From Promethearchaeota archaeon (GTDB lineage Archaea; Asgardarchaeota; Lokiarchaeia; Sigyniarchaeales; SOKP01): 22,011 bases of DNA. A model generated the notes under the pieces. That model was given only the letters and a program-made list of their open reading frames with translations. It was not told the origin of the DNA and ran no database searches. Made by a program: the position numbers and the translations under genes. The stretch is from positions 33,624-55,634 of the forward strand of contig SHMW01000019.1 in the NCBI GenBank assembly GCA_008080735.1. Direction: 5' to 3'. Positions 1,416-11,104 of this stretch are shown here, in pieces; positions within the stretch are counted from its first letter, which is position 1; each line of letters starts with the position of its first letter.

Positions 1416-2720
1416 TTAATCTGCGCTTGGGATTTTGTGTAAATTTCGTTTGTTTTTAGTTTTTGGCTTCTCTTCCTTATTCTGTGATGATTCCGTATTT
1501 GGGTTTTCTTTTATTTTTTCAGAACCCTTTTGGAGGATTTCGACAGCATCAATCGTCTCATTTTTTTGATTAAAATATAAACGGAATAAATGAGTATCTA
1601 ATACAATTATCTCTTTTGGGACCTTTTCCACTAAGTTCCAGTCCGTTTCAATTTGTTCCTCTCCGAATACTTCTACTTTCTTTGAAATCGCACCATATAA
1701 CTTATGACCAACAATCAAATTTTCTCTCCTATAACCTTCGGGGATTTCTACATTCAAGATCTTATCAAAAATAGTTCCTCCCTCATCTGGCAAGTTAATT
1801 GTACTTTTTTCCATTTTGGAGGGGGTGCTGCTACCTTCTGATTTTAATATTTCAATACCTTCCACCATCCCGGCATCCTTATCCAAGTATATTCTAAAAA
1901 TATAATTTTTTAAGGAGTAAATCCCGTCAGGAAGTTTGGAGATTCTTTCCCATTCTTGCTCCTCAATATCTTCTCCAAACACATTGGTTATTTTTGAGAT
2001 GGCTCCGTATAGAGTTTTTCCTACAAGTAAGTTTTGTATACCATAATTTTCTGGAAGATCTTGTTCTAAGATTTTTTCAATGATTTGTTTAGCGTCAAGG
2101 TGTTTCTTACTCTTTGCTCTCGAACTTGAACGTCCTCTAGGAGGGCTATAAGGTTTTTTAGCTCTACTGACTGAAGCTGATGTTGAGGAAGGTGAACCAG
2201 TAGGTTTTTCAATCTCTGCGGAAATATCAACACCTTTTCTTTTGAGCTCTTCTAGAGCGGGTGAATAATATTCTTCCTCTTTTTCTGATTCGCTCCCAGT
2301 GTCCTCGACCACTTTTCCTTTTGGTCTAGTGGTATCTTTTTCAATGTTCCGAATATACCTCATATCTTGAGGTCGTTCTTTTACCTCCATTGATTCTAAA
2401 TTGAACGTACTTAAAAACTCAACTGGTTCATCTCCTTGATCCACTGATACAATTTTACAGCGATGAAATGCTGCTTCTTTCTGAAGCTCCTCTTGAAGAG
2501 AACTAGCTACCCGAGAACTGATAAATCGTTTTCTCACAGGTGATTTTACACCCTTCCATATGAAGATTCTGCGTACATCTTCCTTTACGATAACGAATAC
2601 TTGTTCGGGAGCAAGAATAGATTGTAAATCGCTCTCATCTACATCAATCCTCTGTTTTTCTCCGCTGTCGAGAAGCTCGAATACCATAAAAAAATCGTAT
2701 TCTTCGTTAAGATCTGACAT
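1416..2720 (-). CDS. Gelsolin-homology-domain protein (Asgard-type) with two copies of an uncharacterised ~81-aa C-terminal domain
   Basis: The N-terminal ~100 aa match the gelsolin repeat pattern (VFVI...IFIWKG.KS...K...S...A..L...KIVSVDQGDEPVEFLSTF). An MRYI motif and a Ser/Pro/Lys-rich linker follow, then a clear internal duplication. Start placed at ATG 2720 rather than TTG 2732. Confidence 0.8.
   Translation of the reverse strand: MSDLNEEYDFFMVFELLDSGEKQRIDVDESDLQSILAPEQVFVIVKEDVRRIFIWKGVKSPVRKRFISSRVASSLQEELQKEAAFHRCKIVSVDQGDEPVEFLSTFNLESMEVKERPQDMRYIRNIEKDTTRPKGKVVEDTGSESEKEEEYYSPALEELKRKGVDISAEIEKPTGSPSSTSASVSRAKKPYSPPRGRSSSRAKSKKHLDAKQIIEKILEQDLPENYGIQNLLVGKTLYGAISKITNVFGEDIEEQEWERISKLPDGIYSLKNYIFRIYLDKDAGMVEGIEILKSEGSSTPSKMEKSTINLPDEGGTIFDKILNVEIPEGYRRENLIVGHKLYGAISKKVEVFGEEQIETDWNLVEKVPKEIIVLDTHLFRLYFNQKNETIDAVEILQKGSEKIKENPNTESSQNKEEKPKTKNKRNLHKIPSAD
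1530..2084 (-). repeat. Intragenic domain duplication in the gelsolin protein (aa 217-297 = nt 2084-1842; aa 321-401 = nt 1772-1530)
   Basis: Ungapped hand alignment gives 34/81 identical residues, including LYGAISK, VFGE, W, FRxY and EIL. Confidence 0.9.
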
Positions 2721-2891
2721 TTTTCCGATCAATCACAGAATGGTTGTTTAGCAAAAATTATTTGTTTATTATTATTTTTATAAAACTTATGCTTTTTATT
2801 ATTATTCTTTTAGCAAGAATATCTTATTTGAAATCAAAAAAAAAATTATATTGCAAAATATCACAAATATCTATAATTGTTTTTATCCCAA

Positions 2892-3584
2892 TTAATTTGT
2901 GTCATGCAATACATTGTCTATACTAAGCACGAATCCAAGCAATATTCTCCGGTCTGTTTCATTATCCAAAATTTTAAGTGCATACGTGTCTTTAAAATCT
3001 AATAACCCATCAAGGAATACATCTCTCCACCTATCAGCTTTTTCCACTTCAGCAACAATCTTACCCGAACTCAAATCTTTAATTTTATAACTCCACCCCA
3101 TGAACTTACCCTGTGCTTCATACCATCTCTGACCGTCTGGTCCTTCCAAATAAAATTTTGGTCTAAAAAAGGACAGAATCTTTTTCTTTATTCGGGCAAT
3201 CATATTTTCTTGAGGATCCTTTAAGTCTTGAGCCCCTCGGGCAGAAATTAATTTAGCATGAATGGTTGCTGCGATGGTTCCATCGACTTCTTGTAATTCC
3301 ACCTTTTTTCGTATACTGAATATTTTTCTATGCATCCGCCCGATTACTTTATTGTCTTGATCGAGGATTTCTCCGCTCCCCCAATCCCAATATCCTTCCT
3401 TTAAGATATAATAATTTCTATTAAGATCAAAAAGACCTCCATCTGAATGATAAGGAAGCTCTTGATTGGATTGAGCCACTTTTTGTTGAGGTTGAGCTTT
3501 TTCTCTTTTTAAAGATCCCCCACAATGCTCACAAAAATTTTGCCCTTCATCTATTACTTCTTCTCCACAATTAGGACAATACAT
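2892..3584 (-). CDS. Zinc-ribbon + LURP-one-related/scramblase (tubby C-terminal-like beta-barrel) protein
   Basis: N-terminal CPNC-x11-CEHC zinc ribbon. Repeated 'I.D..g..ig.i.kK.fs' beta units (EILDQDNKVIGRMHRKIFS; ARIKKKILSFF; AQGKFMGWSYKI). C-terminal DTYAL...DRRILLGFVLSID hydrophobic helix typical of the LOR/YxjI/scramblase fold. Confidence 0.8.
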   Translation of the reverse strand: MYCPNCGEEVIDEGQNFCEHCGGSLKREKAQPQQKVAQSNQELPYHSDGGLFDLNRNYYILKEGYWDWGSGEILDQDNKVIGRMHRKIFSIRKKVELQEVDGTIAATIHAKLISARGAQDLKDPQENMIARIKKKILSFFRPKFYLEGPDGQRWYEAQGKFMGWSYKIKDLSSGKIVAEVEKADRWRDVFLDGLLDFKDTYALKILDNETDRRILLGFVLSIDNVLHDTN

Positions 3585-3717
3585 CTCTTTAATTCACTTT
3601 CCATTTAAGTTGATTATATTTTTGAATATTCTTTTAATAAGATATGAAAAATATTCTAATAAAAACCTTTCAAATCAATTGAGAAATTTTTAAATTTTGG
3701 AATGTATAAGTATTAAT

Positions 3718-4506
3718 ATGTCATTAGGAGAAAGATTAATTGATTTACTTAAGTTAAAGGATTATATCACCATCACAGGCACTTCATTAGGATTACTTGC
3801 GCTGATTTTTGCCAGTATTGGAGGTCGAGCCGGCATTTCTTGGGGCTTCTTTTTTATAGCATTTACAGTTGCCACAGATTTACTCGATGGATATATCGCT
3901 CGCAAAACTAATACGGTAAATGAAATCGGTATTCAATTAGATTCATTAAATGATTCCCTCACATTTGGGATTGCTCCTGCAGTACTCACATTTCTTGCAT
4001 TTAGAACGGGTGAATTATACGACATTTTTTTAATTATTGGAAGCATTATTTTCACATTAGGAGGTATCTTGAGACTAGCGCGCTTTAATATTTCTAAATC
4101 AGAAGGATATACTGGAATCCCAACTCCGATGAGTGGATTAATACTCTTGAATTTTTTTTACGGGAATTATTTTTATGCTGTATTTGAATCTGGTGGAGGA
4201 GCAGCTGCAATTGCATATCCGTTTCCTTCCCTCTCGATTTATATCATTCCATTTCTTATGATTTTCATAGGTTGGACGAATATTACAACATATATCAAGT
4301 TTGGAAAAAAAGGGAAAAAGGTATATATTTTATTCTTGGTATTTGCCCCACTTTGTCCTATATTCGGAATTATTGGAATTCTTAATCCTACGCCCATAGT
4401 TGGATTGAGTGTAAGTATTGTTTTTTTCGTATTTGTTAGTCTTTTAGTCGGTTATATATTTTTTGGACTTTTTAGGACATTAATAAAGAAAATTAGGAGT
4501 GACTAA
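3718..4506 (+). CDS. pssA: CDP-alcohol phosphatidyltransferase, type II phosphatidylserine/archaetidylserine synthase-like
   Basis: Signature DLLDGYIARKTNTVNEIGIQLDSLND (DxxDGxxAR...GxxxDxxxD), plus the PssA-type motifs FGIAPA and LRLARFN...GIPTP. Multi-pass membrane protein. ATG 3718 preferred over TTG 3697. Confidence 0.8.
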   Translation: MSLGERLIDLLKLKDYITITGTSLGLLALIFASIGGRAGISWGFFFIAFTVATDLLDGYIARKTNTVNEIGIQLDSLNDSLTFGIAPAVLTFLAFRTGELYDIFLIIGSIIFTLGGILRLARFNISKSEGYTGIPTPMSGLILLNFFYGNYFYAVFESGGGAAAIAYPFPSLSIYIIPFLMIFIGWTNITTYIKFGKKGKKVYILFLVFAPLCPIFGIIGILNPTPIVGLSVSIVFFVFVSLLVGYIFFGLFRTLIKKIRSD

Positions 4507-4593
4507 ATTACGAATTTTTCGATTAAAAAATCACTCTCAAAAAATCATTATTTATATAAACATAACTAAGAAAAAAGTTGCCTCCTCAATTGA

Positions 4594-6591
4594 TTAGAAT
4601 AGTCTATTCTTCCATTCCTCTATTTTATTGAATATTTGTTCCTTTTCTCCTCCACTTAACACTCCTCTCGCATTTTTATAATCATTAATCGTTCTTCTCA
4701 GATCATGAAGAGTTACAGAAAAACCACGTTTTTCTAAAATTAAATCGGCGATTTTTTCTAATGATTGAGCAAAAGTTTGCCCCGTAAGCTCGTTTAATTT
4801 TTTTAATAATGAGTTAAAGGCAGTATTTATCTCCATGCCAACGGAATCGTCAGGCTTAGGTGTAATTTTCGACTTAAAATCTTGGGCTATCCCTAATCCT
4901 GAGACCTGCGGCTTTTTTTCTTTTTTCATTTTTTCTCTGTCGTTTTTTTCTATGGACGTCTTTAATTCATTCCCTATTTTTTCTGAGAGTTTTTCCTCGC
5001 CCTTGGGTTTTGTTTCTATGGTCTCCAGCTTTTTAGACCTTTCTAAGTCTGTCTGTCTAAGGTTTGGACGACTTTGTTGTGTATGAGATTGTGTATATTG
5101 CTTAGTTTTAGTTGGAGTGGGTGCTGGTGTGGGGCTGGATCTCATTGGTTTTTTAGGAACACCCCCATAATCAGGTTCTGCAGCAGACCATACATTATAT
5201 AAAGCCTTCTGAAAGAGTTTAACCAATTTAGAATTATTAATTCCAATTCCAGTAAAGTTATCTAAAATATCTTCTGGGTCTTGATCAATAAATCCCATAA
5301 AAAGCAAATCCTCGTCGGATTTGAGTCCTATAAAGTTTTTATTTTCATAATTTCGAAATTCCAAATTTTCAATACTTTTTAACTTCATAACTTTACTATT
5401 TACATGAGGATCCGAACTAGCTATTCGTATTCTAAGATTTTTGGGAAGATCTTCTAATAAATCGTTAGATAAATAATCTTTAAGATTTGGAATGATAATA
5501 ATTAATTCTGACGTGGAATTATGGATTGCATTTATAATATGCTCGTTTATAAGAGTAGTAGATTTTATTTTCCAAATATATTCATTTTTTAAGTCTTCTG
5601 TTTTTAGCGCAATCTGCCTATAATTTGACAAGGCTCTCAGAATAGGCTGATTAAGATTTGCTATTTGATCAACAGAATTGCTAATGATTATATTTAGTTT
5701 ACTAAGAATCGTATTTTTCAAAGATTCAATGTTCGGGTCTAAATTATCTTTTTTTTCTTTAATTGATTCACCCAAACGTTTCATTTTCATCTCAAAGCTC
5801 GAAAGAAGATTTAAGAGTAACATTTTAAAATCATTTCTTTGTTGAATTGATGCATTCAGTATTGGTTTTAAAGAAACTTGGTCAAATTCTCTTTCGATTA
5901 AACTTGTCACCCTATTGGTGAAATCTCCCACCGTTTTGTCTACTTTTGCATCAAATACTTCTTCTACAGCCTCAATGACTACTTCTTCTCTCTTTTTAAG
6001 ATTTAGGTCTTGTATTTTACTAATAATGTCTTTCCTCAACTGCCCAATAATTTTTACTAAATTTCCGAATTCAGTTTGAGTAATACCCATGATTCTTTTT
6101 TGGAGTTCCGATACTTCTGTCTCAATATCTTTGATGTTATCCATCTCTTTGGCTATATCTTCAGCATCTTTCTTCTGCAATAGACTATCTTCATCAAAAT
6201 CTTTTTTAATGTCTTTAAAATCATTATAAATACTATCTAACTCTAATTTATTTTCATTTTGAAAGATCTCACCGACAGATTTTACTATAAGGTTCTGAAT
6301 AGCGTTTTTAATATCAGAAAAGCTACTTTCAATATTACTATAATAATTCAATATAGGAGTTATCGGAGGAACCGCATAATATGACTTTAATTTCTTTTTA
6401 TTCTCAGTTTCAAGTGTTATAATGAGTTTATGTTCATTTAATTCTTCCAAAGTATCATTAAAAGTGTTATTTTCAATCTCGGGAAGAATTGCTTTCAATT
6501 CATAATATGTATGTGGTATATCTCCTAATACTTTTAAGTAAATATTTATCGCATTTTCGCTTAAACCTAATTTTTTAAGAAATTCTTTCAT
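4594..6591 (-). CDS. TrmB-like winged-helix + long coiled-coil + degenerate PLD-like domain + C-terminal helical domain protein
   Basis: N-terminus LKKLGLSENAINIYLKVL...YYAVPP matches the TrmB wHTH. aa ~80-335 are amphipathic helical. aa ~338-470 (IWKI...INAIHNSTSELIIIIP...IRIAS...EFR...W) resemble the PLD-like/effector domain of TrmB. A low-complexity linker and an ~80-aa helical C-terminus follow. Confidence 0.65.
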   Translation of the reverse strand: MKEFLKKLGLSENAINIYLKVLGDIPHTYYELKAILPEIENNTFNDTLEELNEHKLIITLETENKKKLKSYYAVPPITPILNYYSNIESSFSDIKNAIQNLIVKSVGEIFQNENKLELDSIYNDFKDIKKDFDEDSLLQKKDAEDIAKEMDNIKDIETEVSELQKRIMGITQTEFGNLVKIIGQLRKDIISKIQDLNLKKREEVVIEAVEEVFDAKVDKTVGDFTNRVTSLIEREFDQVSLKPILNASIQQRNDFKMLLLNLLSSFEMKMKRLGESIKEKKDNLDPNIESLKNTILSKLNIIISNSVDQIANLNQPILRALSNYRQIALKTEDLKNEYIWKIKSTTLINEHIINAIHNSTSELIIIIPNLKDYLSNDLLEDLPKNLRIRIASSDPHVNSKVMKLKSIENLEFRNYENKNFIGLKSDEDLLFMGFIDQDPEDILDNFTGIGINNSKLVKLFQKALYNVWSAAEPDYGGVPKKPMRSSPTPAPTPTKTKQYTQSHTQQSRPNLRQTDLERSKKLETIETKPKGEEKLSEKIGNELKTSIEKNDREKMKKEKKPQVSGLGIAQDFKSKITPKPDDSVGMEINTAFNSLLKKLNELTGQTFAQSLEKIADLILEKRGFSVTLHDLRRTINDYKNARGVLSGGEKEQIFNKIEEWKNRLF

Positions 6592-6743
6592 TCTGGATCC
6601 CTAATCTACAAAATTCTCTCAAATATATAAAAAAACATTATTTAAATATAGAAAAATACACTATTAATCTTTTTGGATAGAAAAAAACATTTAATTACAT
6701 TCTTATTTATTTTAATTAGTAATTGGAAAAATGGGATTGAGAT

Positions 6744-8153
6744 TTGTCGGTAAAAAAAATTGAAGAAGTCATATTCTATCTTGACCTAACCAAAAATTAT
6801 GTAAAAAAAAAGGATTTACTCAAATTATTCGAAAATTATATAGAAAAAAGAAAGGAAGTCAATAGAAACGGAAAATTTGGACTCCTTCTTTTTGATAATG
6901 AGGATTCTCCTATTTTTACCAGTCAAAAAAATAGTTCAATGGAGATAAACAAAATCATTGATGAAAGCTGGGAATCACGTTCAATTAGAAAATCCTTTTT
7001 TGAAAAAGGATTATTTTATATCCTTTCTTATATAACTGAAAGTATTAGGAAGCGTCCAAAAGCATATAGGATTATTATTCTTTCAGATACACCAAGCGGT
7101 CTTTCAGAAGATTACCAAAAATCGCTCTTTGATTTAGTCTCCAAGGTTAAATATTTCCCTACATTTATAGATATTATTAGATTATCGAAAGAAAAAAAGC
7201 GATTTTTTGATGATGAGGTTAAACTAAACATTCTGGTGTCGGATACAAAAGGAGGGATCTTTTATGTAAAAGATAAAAAAGAATTAACCGCAACCTTCAA
7301 TAAATTGATCAATCCTAAAGACCTGGTAAATACTTTTAGACATAAACCAGATCAGATTGAAATTTCGAACGAAGATTTAATGTTCTATAGCAATCTGGCT
7401 AAAACCTTAAAAGAGCCTTTAAATAAGGAAAATCTTGTTTGTTATTTATGCGATAACGAAATTTGCCCTGTGTGTGCTGATGTATATGATATCCCTATGA
7501 AATGCACAGATTGTGGAACAGCATTTCATAGTTGTTGCGTTTTAGATTATTCAATTGATAATAATATTGGAATTCCCTTTATTTTCAGATGTCCAAAGTG
7601 TGGAAGGCTATTAAAACTTCAAAAAGAAGTTATAAGAATGCATAATAAAGGGATAAATCAAGAGGATCAGATAACTGAGAAAGATTCTCCGAAAAAAATG
7701 CAACAAAAAGTTAATCTAGATAGAGTCAAACCCCCAGAACCCTTGGAGTTTAAAAAATGGGAAAGAGGGAGTCAAGACCGAATAATAGATGAGAAGGATG
7801 AAAGAAATGCTAAATATATACGAATTGGGGGTTTTTTTGGAAAAACTTATAAAGTTATAGAAAAAGAAGGTAAAATAGTTTATGAAAAATCAATAAAGCC
7901 CTCCAAATCTAATAATAACCATTCGGCATCAGAAAGCCATTTTGACCATCCTAAAACTGGAAATATCTCTTCAAATGCAAGTTTGAAAAATCCTACCAAA
8001 CCAAATCAAACAAGATATTGGAAACCGAATCTTGAGAGTAATATTATCCAAACAAAAACCAATAATAGAAAAAAATTAAAACTTTGTCCTATTTGCGGCA
8101 AATCACTCCCAAATGGAGTAGATCGCTGTTTATATTGTGGTAGTAAAATATAG
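6744..8153 (+). CDS. vWA domain + Cys-rich PHD/RING-like zinc finger + C-terminal zinc ribbon protein (paralog A)
   Basis: vWA strand pattern VIFYLD, FGLLLF, RIIILSD, IDIIRL, TKGGIFY. Zinc region C233-C286 (nt 7440-7601). C-terminal CPIC-x10-CLYC. TTG start. Confidence 0.75.
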   Translation: MSVKKIEEVIFYLDLTKNYVKKKDLLKLFENYIEKRKEVNRNGKFGLLLFDNEDSPIFTSQKNSSMEINKIIDESWESRSIRKSFFEKGLFYILSYITESIRKRPKAYRIIILSDTPSGLSEDYQKSLFDLVSKVKYFPTFIDIIRLSKEKKRFFDDEVKLNILVSDTKGGIFYVKDKKELTATFNKLINPKDLVNTFRHKPDQIEISNEDLMFYSNLAKTLKEPLNKENLVCYLCDNEICPVCADVYDIPMKCTDCGTAFHSCCVLDYSIDNNIGIPFIFRCPKCGRLLKLQKEVIRMHNKGINQEDQITEKDSPKKMQQKVNLDRVKPPEPLEFKKWERGSQDRIIDEKDERNAKYIRIGGFFGKTYKVIEKEGKIVYEKSIKPSKSNNNHSASESHFDHPKTGNISSNASLKNPTKPNQTRYWKPNLESNIIQTKTNNRKKLKLCPICGKSLPNGVDRCLYCGSKI

Positions 8154-8288
8154 ATTACAACTAGGATACATATAATTGAAGTTTCGATTTGATTAAAAAT
8201 AAATAAGAAATCTATTTTATTAGTTTTAGATTAGTTTCTTAAAATAGATGGAATTTAGAATTTTTAATAACAGGTAAAATCATATCTC

Positions 8289-9560
8289 ATGAATTTTAAT
8301 AATAATAAGTTATCCCAGTCTGAAGAAATCATTTTCTATTTGGATCTTTCTACTGATTTTTTAAAGAGAAAAACCTTGGTTAAAGCATTAGATGATTTTA
8401 TTGAAAATAAAAATGATTTATTTAAAAATATTTCTTATGGATTAGTTTTATTTAAGAAAGCAAAAGAGATCTTTAGTTTATATGACAAAAATGCGGAACG
8501 GATTATAGATACAATTGAAGATATTTGGGATGAGCGAGAGGAGCATGTGAGTTATTTTGAAAATGGATTGTATGAAATCCTTGCTCATATCTTTAAAGTA
8601 AGCAGAAACAATCCTAAAAAATATCAAGTTATAGTGTTATCTGATTCTGTTAGTCATCTGTCAGACGAATACCATACAGCACTCTATAATTTAATTTTGA
8701 AAGCTAAAAACTTCACTACTACAATAAATGTGATTCGATTAGGAGAAGATAAATTTTATGAGGATGATGTTAAGTTAAAGGTAATTACAAGCGAAACTTT
8801 TGGAGCTACATTTTATTGTGATAATAGAAAAAACCTTGATACTTATCTAAATTCACTACTCAAAACCCAAGAAAAAATAAATGTCCTAAAGAGCGAATCC
8901 CAAAAAGTATTAGATGATGATTATACCTTTTACGAAAAATTGGCTACAGATCTAATTTCTCTTTCTTCAGAAGATGAAATTATTTGTATTTTATGCGAAC
9001 AGGAGTTATGCCCGATATGTGAGACCCATAGTGATGAGCTTCATAAATGTTATAATTGCGATGCTCCTTTTCATAGCTGTTGTGCTGCTGAATATTCGAT
9101 TTCAAATCAAATTGGCTTTCCTAATATATTTAGGTGTCCGCGCTGTGGAGCTCTTTTAAAATTGGATAAAAATTTTGTAGACACCATTTTATCAGAAAAA
9201 TCAGAACAAGAAGAAATTGATTCAGAACAGAAAGAAAATGTTCTAGAACAATATATTTCCAATGAAGATTTCAAAGAAGATATAACAGATGATGGAAACA
9301 TTCCGTTGCGACCCCCGAGTAAAAAAAAGGTAAAAGTTGGAGGTTTTTTCGGTACAGAAATAGAGATTAATTCCAATGGGTCCTCAAATAATAAAAGTAA
9401 TCGTGGATTTGCAAAAAATCAGCATAATGATGAGAAAGTGTCAATAAGTTCTCTAAGACCCCCAAGATCTAAGAGCTCTCTAAAGTTGTGTCCTATTTGT
9501 GGAGCAACTGTAAAAGGTTCTGTTTTCTGTCCTATTTGTGGTTCTAAAATTGAGAAATAA
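8289..9560 (+). CDS. vWA domain + Cys-rich PHD/RING-like zinc finger + C-terminal zinc ribbon protein (paralog B)
   Basis: Collinear paralog of 6744-8153: IIFYLD, YGLVLF, VIVLSD, INVIRL. Identical Cys/His spacing (nt 8985-9146). GGFFG motif and a C-terminal CPIC...CPIC. Confidence 0.75.
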   Translation: MNFNNNKLSQSEEIIFYLDLSTDFLKRKTLVKALDDFIENKNDLFKNISYGLVLFKKAKEIFSLYDKNAERIIDTIEDIWDEREEHVSYFENGLYEILAHIFKVSRNNPKKYQVIVLSDSVSHLSDEYHTALYNLILKAKNFTTTINVIRLGEDKFYEDDVKLKVITSETFGATFYCDNRKNLDTYLNSLLKTQEKINVLKSESQKVLDDDYTFYEKLATDLISLSSEDEIICILCEQELCPICETHSDELHKCYNCDAPFHSCCAAEYSISNQIGFPNIFRCPRCGALLKLDKNFVDTILSEKSEQEEIDSEQKENVLEQYISNEDFKEDITDDGNIPLRPPSKKKVKVGGFFGTEIEINSNGSSNNKSNRGFAKNQHNDEKVSISSLRPPRSKSSLKLCPICGATVKGSVFCPICGSKIEK

Positions 9561-9697: not shown

Positions 9698-11104
9698 ATG
9701 GATTTTACTTTAACCGAGAAACAAAAAGAATTGCAACAGAAAGCTCGTGAATTTGCTGTTGAGGAAGTTTTACCAGTCGCAAGAAGTTATGATGAAAAGA
9801 ATACTATGGCAATGGATGTTATTAAAAGGGCATGGGAAGAAGATTTATTGAATCTGGGAATACCAAAAGAATATGGCGGTCCTGGCTATGGATTAGTTGA
9901 ATCAATCATAGTCGTAGAAGAAATAGCCGCTGCCTGTCCAGGAATAGCCACTAGTATTTTTGATAATAATCTTGGTGCTGAGCCAATAATACTTGGCGGA
10001 AATGATGAGCAAAAGGAACGTATTTTAAAAGAGTTAGTTGATGAATTCAAACTAATTTCTTTTGCTACATCAGAGCCTGGAATGGGTTCAGATGTTGCTG
10101 GAATGCAATGTCGAGCGGAAAAAGATGGGGATGACTTTATTCTTAATGGTTCAAAGTATTGGATAACGAATGCTGGGTATGCAGATTATATTTCAGTTTT
10201 CGCGACAGTGGATCCAGAGAAACGGCATAAAGGGATCTGTGCCTTTATAGTTCCAAAAGATACTGAAGGGCTTCGAACCGGAGCACATATTCCGAAATTA
10301 GGGCAAAGAGCATCAAATACTTGTTCTGTGATATTAAATGATGTCAGAGTTCCTAAAAAAAATGTACTAGCAAAACCAGGATATGGGTTTGTTTTAGCAA
10401 TGCAAACATTTGCGAATACTCGACCAGCAATCGGAGCTTTTGCTGTAGGATGTGCACGCTCCGCGATGGAATATTCGATTGATTATGCAAAAGAGCGAGA
10501 AGCTTTTGGAAGAACTATTGATCATTATCAAGCAATTCAATTTAAAATTGCCGAAATGTATAAAAATATCGAAGCTGCAAGGTTGTTAACTTATAGAGCA
10601 GCTTGGGAAGCAGATCAAGGAATCGATAATAACATAAGTTCGGCATGTGCTAAGGCATTTGCATCAGACGTCGCGATGGAGGTGACTACTGAAGCAATTC
10701 AAATTTTTGGTGGCTATGGATATATAAAGACATACCCTGTTGAAAAATTGTTCAGAGATGCAAAATTATTCCAGATTTATGAAGGAACTTCGGAGATTCA
10801 AAGAATTGTTATTTCTCGACATGCCATGAAAAAATATCAACATGGAATGCCTAATCTCTATGATCTTCCCTCAAGGGAAATTTCAGAGGAACAAGATATT
10901 TCTGAGGTCTCGAAGGAGGAAATAACCAAAACAGCAGAAGAGCTTGGAGGAAAATATAGATGTTCTGTATGTGGTTATGTTTATGACCCAGTCAAAGGAG
11001 ACCCTGACGGGGGAATTGAACCCGGTACACCCTTTGAAGAAATCCCTGATAGGTGGGTTTGTCCCGTATGTGGAGCAGCTAAATCGCAGTTTAACAAAAT
11101 CTAA
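9698..11104 (+). CDS. Acyl-CoA dehydrogenase with C-terminal rubredoxin domain
   Basis: ACAD motifs [35 protein letters not shown] and catalytic [11 protein letters not shown]-terminal [32 protein letters not shown] is a canonical rubredoxin (nt 10952-11101). GAGGA SD-like motif at 9687-9691. Confidence 0.95.

Follow-up and report, generated by a model that had tools for sequence, protein, structure and literature searches.

Asgard archaea encode proteins in which one gelsolin domain is joined to a further, non-gelsolin domain, named X, and these have been published as the 1DGelX or GelX class (PMC7444086, PMC9433394, bioRxiv 10.1101/2025.11.30.690169). Asgard archaea have few actin regulators, and the GelX proteins belong to these few. 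The member from Thorarchaeota, Thor 1DGelX, binds rabbit actin with a Kd of 7.7 uM and shows severing, nucleation and sequestration without calcium; it forms short bundles in TIRF assays, with bundling not seen by sedimentation, and a GFP-1DGelX fusion associates weakly with filaments in human cells (PMC7444086). One-domain Asgard gelsolins are described in the same work as lacking calcium sites (PMC7444086). Loki genomes carry two to three 1DGelX genes each (PMC9433394), and co-precipitation with Lokiactin is reported for five gelsolin-homology proteins of L. ossiferum, a cultured species whose B35_GelX groups with Thor_GelX (bioRxiv 10.1101/2025.11.30.690169). The X domain has been described either as a predicted coiled coil (by I-TASSER) or as disordered (PMC7444086; bioRxiv 10.1101/2025.11.30.690169).

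The window, i.e. the whole stretch of 22,011 nucleotides analysed here, encodes a 434-aa protein of this class in which X is present twice. The class of Asgard proteins with a gelsolin domain and domain X is already known; what sets this protein apart is the doubled X that is not followed by the HeH module found in most relatives. Read on the plus strand, 1416-2720 is full of stops, and the gene is on the minus strand. Its start is the ATG at 2720, and an in-frame TTG at 2732 would add four residues. As the GelX orthologues begin as in the ATG form, the residue numbers of the first-pass annotation, which were counted from the TTG, are four too high, so that MRYI moves from 124-127 to 120-123 and the repeat from 217-297 to 213-293, with the second copy at 317-397; the features themselves stand as it had described them. 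Full-length orthologues are 55-87% identical. In ATG-based numbering and in order of reading, the features of the gene are the following:

2775..2785, minus strand: TATA-box-like element TTTTATAAAAA, some 55-65 nt before the ATG, read by eye
1416..2720, minus strand: GelX-type coding sequence (P0002), 434 aa, with the stop codon at 1416-1418
2391..2693, minus strand: gelsolin-homology domain, aa 10-110, with the invariant W55-x-G57 and an AlphaFold2 pLDDT above 90
2340..2366, minus strand: DMRYIRNIE, aa 119-127, a conserved motif and candidate WH2-like extension
2244..2276, minus strand: EEYYSPALEEL acidic motif, aa 149-159, a short helix in the model (helix 154-161, pLDDT about 76)
2109..2243, minus strand: disordered Ser/Pro/basic linker, aa 160-204, with pLDDT below 50 at 168-186 and 195-200
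1842..2084, minus strand: domain X copy 1, aa 213-293, a helix and five strands
1773..1841, minus strand: inter-repeat linker, aa 294-316, modelled as ordered in the full-length protein, strand at 302-305
1530..1772, minus strand: domain X copy 2, aa 317-397
1419..1451, minus strand: KRNLHKIPSAD at the C-terminus, aa 424-434, with L427 and P431 invariant; degenerate relative to the family motif [KR]RxLPKIP

The TATA-box-like element TTTTATAAAAA is possibly the GelX gene's own promoter; a scan of the region for bacterial-type promoters and terminators gave results at chance level. The three short motifs singled out in the first-pass annotation (MRYI, YYSPALEEL and KRNLHKIPSAD) are all present, within stretches conserved over 100 aligned homologues, and the linker that it had read as disordered is disordered in the model and not conserved among the aligned homologues.

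The full-length protein was modelled by AlphaFold2 with a 100-sequence alignment. The best structural match of its gelsolin domain is the actin-bound Thorarchaeota ProGel (7c2f_D), with a Z of 14.5 and, over all 88 residues, an rmsd of 1.4 A. Next come domains of human gelsolin (including G2 and G3), villin and adseverin and of fragmin at Z 11-13; the gelsolin-like domains of Sec23/24 reach Z 6.5-9.3, and ADF/cofilin Z 6-7. Foldseek supports the domain model at E 1.3e-5 and returned 28 matches at E<=1e-3, all of them gelsolin-family domains, and the family profile found ProGel (7c2f_B) among PDB sequences at E 7.6e-7. The Pfam family PF00626 scores 18.2 bits for the 434-aa protein, against a gathering cut-off of 21, with 21.7 bits in a six-frame search of the genome and 24.8 bits in the orthologue P0013. 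The single gelsolin domain claimed at first pass is thus weak by Pfam and strong by profile and fold (Z 14.5), and the N-terminus does model as a gelsolin fold; residues 10-110 are predicted, beyond doubt, to have this fold in a form closest to Thor ProGel. Gelsolin-homology domains have three layers, a central sheet being packed against a long and a short helix.

The domain differs from calcium-regulated gelsolins at a defined site. In the alignment with the 2DGel protein of the same genome, the type II calcium site (an Asp before strand B and a Glu that starts the long helix, present in gelsolin G1 and Asgard 2DGel) is absent from the GelX gelsolin domain: the two ligands of 2DGel domain 1, D and E, align to Q40 and K64 of the GelX protein. 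In this region R63 is invariant in the family and K64 is conserved in at least 90%. The type II site is a trait of calcium-regulated members, which the gelsolin fold itself does not need. With Q40 and K64 in place of the acidic ligands, calcium-independent activity is to be expected, as has been reported for 1DGelX. From the closeness of the domain to the ProGel and 2DGel structures solved in complex with actin, we infer by analogy that it would bind actin as well.

WH2/LKKT-type motifs follow the pattern hydrophobic-basic-basic-[TV] after a helix that is seated in the actin cleft. The DMRYIRNIE motif, in which Y122 and N125 are invariant and D119 and R124 conserved in at least 90% of 100 homologues, places MRYI 16 residues past the EFL that ends the domain; the MKIV of the own-genome 2DGel lies 10 residues past its EFL, and the WH2-like motif at the corresponding place in Thor 2DGel is LRRV (PMC7444086). 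The proposal that MRYI occupies the place equivalent to the WH2-like motif is supported by its location within an invariant motif and by a spacing much like that of MKIV, and MRYI is a plausible candidate for a WH2-like actin contact. The long helix of the gelsolin domain would then stand in for the WH2 helix, and DMRYIRNIE would extend along actin behind the domain. In having a hydrophobic-basic-x-hydrophobic stretch 10-16 residues after the fold (LRRV, MKIV, MRYI), the 434-aa protein resembles both Asgard 2DGel and eukaryotic gelsolin G1; it differs from them in having neither a second gelsolin domain nor the acidic type II ligands, and calcium control is therefore not expected.

Two further motifs flank the X-bearing half of the protein. 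EEYYSPALEEL, located about 25 residues past the WH2-like motif, has Y151, S153 and P154 conserved in at least 90% across the GelX subfamily. Its YYSPALEEL part was considered as a degenerate HeH and rejected, as the HeH of the relatives sits after X (aa ~310-345) with YYSPAL co-present. The C-terminal motif belongs to a pattern, [KR]RxLPKIP, found in 212 of 304 family proteins and always 2-6 residues from the C-terminus; the residue after the Leu is Pro in 197 of the 212 and His in 3, and the RNLHKIP of the 434-aa protein is this rare His variant. Class I SH3 ligands have the consensus +xPhiPxPhiP, into which the family consensus RxLPKIP fits and RNLHKIP fails to fit, having His for the first Pro. 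The GelX tail, judged by its family consensus, fits a proline-type, SH3-ligand-like short motif rather than a WH2 motif. The suggestion that LHKI might be a second WH2-like motif is accordingly dropped, given a consensus of LPKIP, no preceding helix in the model and a pLDDT below 62.

The protein is assigned to the 1DGelX/GelX class by architecture, size, taxon and gene counts, Thor 1DGelX being matched by description. As in that class, one N-terminal gelsolin domain is followed by a non-gelsolin C-terminal X, in Asgard archaea only, and the three Gel-X genes of this genome, which stand beside one 2DGel gene, fit the published 1DGelX gene count. Thor 1DGelX was reported to have "migrated at a similar position to actin" (PMC7444086), and the Thor-labelled family members, at 324-360 aa, fit such a migration; a search that started from a Thor-labelled homologue returned no SMTZ1-83 record among its best 120 matches. 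The 434-aa protein shares with Thor 1DGelX and B35_GelX the ProGel-like N-terminal domain without calcium sites, the long linker, the C-terminal X and the restriction to Asgard archaea. It differs from them in having X twice, in tandem, without the HeH/Rho_N-like module present in 65 of 92 single-X relatives. [quoted passage not shown] ProGel, unlike the 434-aa protein, is a bare domain of 88-94 aa with very weak actin binding, beyond which the 434-aa protein has the DMRYIRNIE extension, the linker, two X domains and the tail motif. The basic picture is unchanged, the protein falling within a described class, and the first-pass statement that the architecture was not recognised is superseded, gelsolin plus domain X being already published as 1DGelX/GelX and X being almost always paired with a gelsolin domain, a pairing that the first-pass annotation had itself named as counting against novelty.

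The two 81-aa repeats seen in the sequence are reproduced by BLASTP (34/81 identical, ungapped, E 2e-22). A model of X, built from 148 aligned copies, has a pLDDT of 90.2 and a pTM of 0.78 and shows an N-terminal helix followed by five antiparallel strands. Such a compact predicted fold of a helix and five strands disagrees with the published descriptions of X as a coiled coil or as disordered. The first-pass view that the repeat is not a gelsolin repeat is upheld by a different order of secondary-structure elements and by an hhalign probability of 0.3%, the value by which X as a divergent gelsolin repeat was ruled out. X has no consistent Pfam match in the 148 copies, only noise in NCBIfam and no relative among PDB sequences; Foldseek of its model against the PDB gives a best E of 0.2, and an exhaustive structural aligner a best Z of 3.6, which does not by itself prove the fold to be novel. 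In the ESM Atlas, shape-based and feature-based searches alike lead back only to the protein's own Asgard clusters.

The distribution of X is as narrow as that of the class. An exhaustive search with the X profile through 1.84 billion cluster representatives found 123 clusters only, and nearly all full-length ones carry the same N-terminal gelsolin-like domain, the exceptions being short fragments. A word-indexed search yielded at least 593 relatives, of which all named ones are Asgard and labelled either "hypothetical" or after the HeH/Rho_N motif. Within the phylum, X occurs in 140 of 201 sampled genomes, in 70 of 85 of high quality, and in all 40 of the window's own family. X is thus confined to Asgard archaea and is almost always found behind a gelsolin domain.

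Among 120 close homologues, counted for X copies as had been proposed at first pass, 28 have two and 92 have one. In a tree of all X copies, the 26 first copies of the Lokiarchaeial orthologues form one clade (SH-aLRT 96) and their 26 second copies another (98), the two being sisters (87), while P0070 and P0097 represent a separate, independent duplication (SH-aLRT 100). In the 201-genome sample, two X domains in one frame are confined to two genera of the window's family. The tree gives the doubling of X two origins, one in a Lokiarchaeial sub-clade and a separate one in a second lineage. In single-X relatives, Pfam usually finds a HeH/Rho_N/SAP-like module after X, and a family-specific HeH model matches 65 of the 92 single-X proteins and none of the 28 with two copies; the 434-aa protein itself has no match to PF12949 or PF07498 (HeH/LEM/Rho_N). 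By position, the two-X gene is orthologous to the gene for the single-X protein with HeH. One tandem duplication in the Lokiarchaeial sub-clade would have placed the second X where the relatives have HeH.

What two copies of X might do depends on whether X associates with itself. Homodimer prediction for a single-copy X (P0075, residues 184-296) gave a score of 0.56 against 0.01 for the best control. Of 30 proteins solved as pairs, 20 attain this mark, as does 1 of 23 solved as single chains; such counts serve only as a rough guide when a custom alignment is used. At least 81% of contacts are common to the three runs, partner pLDDT is at least 76, and the predicted interface is symmetric and formed through the sheet. 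In the full-length model, residues 205-400, including the 23-aa inter-repeat linker, have a pLDDT of 92-97 (92-95 for the linker), and the linker residues fall to about 64 when X1 is folded alone. The full-length model has a pTM of 0.53, in keeping with a rigid body some 200 residues long. From pLDDT and pTM we infer that X1 packs against X2 within the chain, and the short, ordered linker within one rigid X1-linker-X2 unit favours pairing of this kind.

Tandem doubling of a homodimerising domain, giving a single-chain pseudo-dimer, is a general evolutionary pattern. The case of X resembles it in the predicted symmetric homodimer, the head-to-tail doubling, the short and ordered linker, and the occurrence of at least two independent events. 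Taken jointly, the observations are best explained by a Lokiarchaeial actin regulator of the 1DGelX/GelX type with a doubled X, whose two X copies pair within one chain, and we regard this reading as probable. The most likely predicted role is calcium-independent regulation of Lokiactin filaments. In the proposed mechanism, a flexible linker of about 90 aa would lead from the gelsolin head to the two X copies. Because X is predicted to be a symmetric homodimer, pairing of single-copy X would make the ordinary GelX proteins two-headed dimers; the two copies of the 434-aa protein would most likely pair in one chain as a pseudo-dimer, and the doubled-X form would be a one-headed, monomeric body that retains the C-terminal tail motif, though degenerate. 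A wider proposal, which we put forward tentatively and hold to be rather less than probable, is that X serves as the dimerisation module throughout the GelX class, and that two lineages independently fused two X domains into a pseudo-dimer and lost HeH. If this were true, two-headed GelX dimers could explain the nucleation and transient bundling by Thor 1DGelX, many ordinary GelX dimers would be tethered via HeH, and there would be a natural one-headed variant, with head number tuning severing versus nucleation at a phosphatidylserine-rich membrane.

The idea of bivalent binding put forward in the first-pass annotation keeps some standing, even though the X pairing prediction and the rigid X1-linker-X2 unit favour intrachain pairing instead. 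On this reading, the X copies would pair between chains or bind separate targets, giving multivalent bundling or cross-linking of actin, or tethering of partners. X is predicted to self-associate, the short Thor 1DGelX bundles were seen in TIRF (PMC7444086), and both X copies have been kept conserved in 26 of 26 descendants, all of which would suit such an arrangement. It is nevertheless unlikely, as the inter-repeat linker of 23 aa is short and, with its pLDDT of 92-95, part of one rigid unit, and the bundling by Thor 1DGelX was absent from sedimentation assays (PMC7444086).

Somewhat less likely again is that X binds the side of the actin filament and that its two copies touch two neighbouring protomers, raising the efficiency of severing. 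Side-binding was the hypothesis of Akil et al. 2020 for the C-terminal extension (PMC7444086). The columns of the predicted X interface and the rest of X are equally conserved, so that the dimer face does not stand out by its conservation, and a strongly conserved surface lies off the interface (K39, F44, G45 and W53 in X-alignment numbering), which hints, by its conservation, at another ligand. This surface outside the predicted dimer face speaks for side-binding, and the near-constant company of a gelsolin domain is in keeping with it as well; on the other hand, X bears no resemblance to a known actin-binding fold (best Z 3.6, no Foldseek match), and GFP-1DGelX was found only weakly on filaments in human cells (PMC7444086). 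It has to be noted that side-binding and dimerisation of X are mutually compatible and not exclusive. The X model, the controlled prediction of its self-pairing and the one- and two-copy variants provide constructs for testing X in severing, nucleation and bundling.

Returning to the preferred reading, that of an actin regulator with an internally paired X, the gene neighbourhood offers an indication of where such a protein may act. The GelX gene lies 0.1-1.2 kb from a gene for a CDP-alcohol phosphatidyltransferase (CDP-OH_P_transf) in 10 of 10 contexts from other genomes, among them some from records with Hod-, Hermod-, Odin- and Heimdallarchaeota labels and the one of the independently duplicated form. 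A gene for a zinc-ribbon protein with a LOR domain usually stands between GelX and the transferase, with a gene for a protein of about 660 aa beyond, and the gene order in the window is the order in those contexts. This conserved Asgard block around the GelX subfamily (2892-9560 in the window, and L010, L011 and L013-L019) is made up of one or two zinc-ribbon proteins of about 445 aa, the ~660-aa protein, which has no Pfam match, the PssA-like transferase, the zinc-ribbon+LOR protein (tubby/scramblase-like) and GelX. A convergent gene for a zinc-ribbon+HEAT protein is next in 6 of the 10 contexts. In one context (L019) the transferase adjoins a phosphatidylserine decarboxylase, which supports its being a phosphatidylserine synthase. 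The genes are partly divergent or convergent, and their proximity does not imply co-transcription. The fixed place near the PssA-like and LOR genes suggests, by synteny, that GelX acts on actin at a membrane, and the PssA-like neighbour, together with the HeH found in most relatives, suggests a cellular site of GelX action. That the protein is not an actin regulator, its gelsolin-like fold serving another partner (cf. Sec23/Sec24) in membrane biogenesis together with the lipid genes, would accord with the invariant synteny with the PssA-like and LOR genes and with the match of Sec23/24 domains to the model, yet is very improbable, as the actin-bound Asgard and eukaryotic gelsolin domains are clearly closer (Z 11-14.5 versus 6.5-9.3) and actin is the target of the one class member that has been characterised (PMC7444086). 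Farther along the window, at 9698-11104 on the plus strand, Pfam identifies an acyl-CoA dehydrogenase with a C-terminal rubredoxin fusion, and the same fusion recurs near the GelX orthologue in L013.

The remaining gelsolin genes of the genome differ from the two-X gene in their C-terminal parts. The 2DGel protein of 344 aa (contig C21, L005:1441-2475, plus strand) has MKIV as the WH2-like motif between its two gelsolin domains, a long acidic linker and a C-terminal zinc-ribbon of the CxxC...CxxC type. A single-X GelX paralogue of 355 aa (contig C1, L003:1243-2310, minus strand) is without the DMRYV and RxLPKIP motifs, and its C-terminus shows, by eye, a helix-hairpin-helix-like segment in place of HeH, from which it appears that GelX subfamilies carry different C-terminal modules of nucleic-acid-binding type. 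The third GelX paralogue, of 286 aa (contig C88, L004:453-1313, minus strand), is more divergent; its linker is rich in Gly, and its tail is short, basic and helical.
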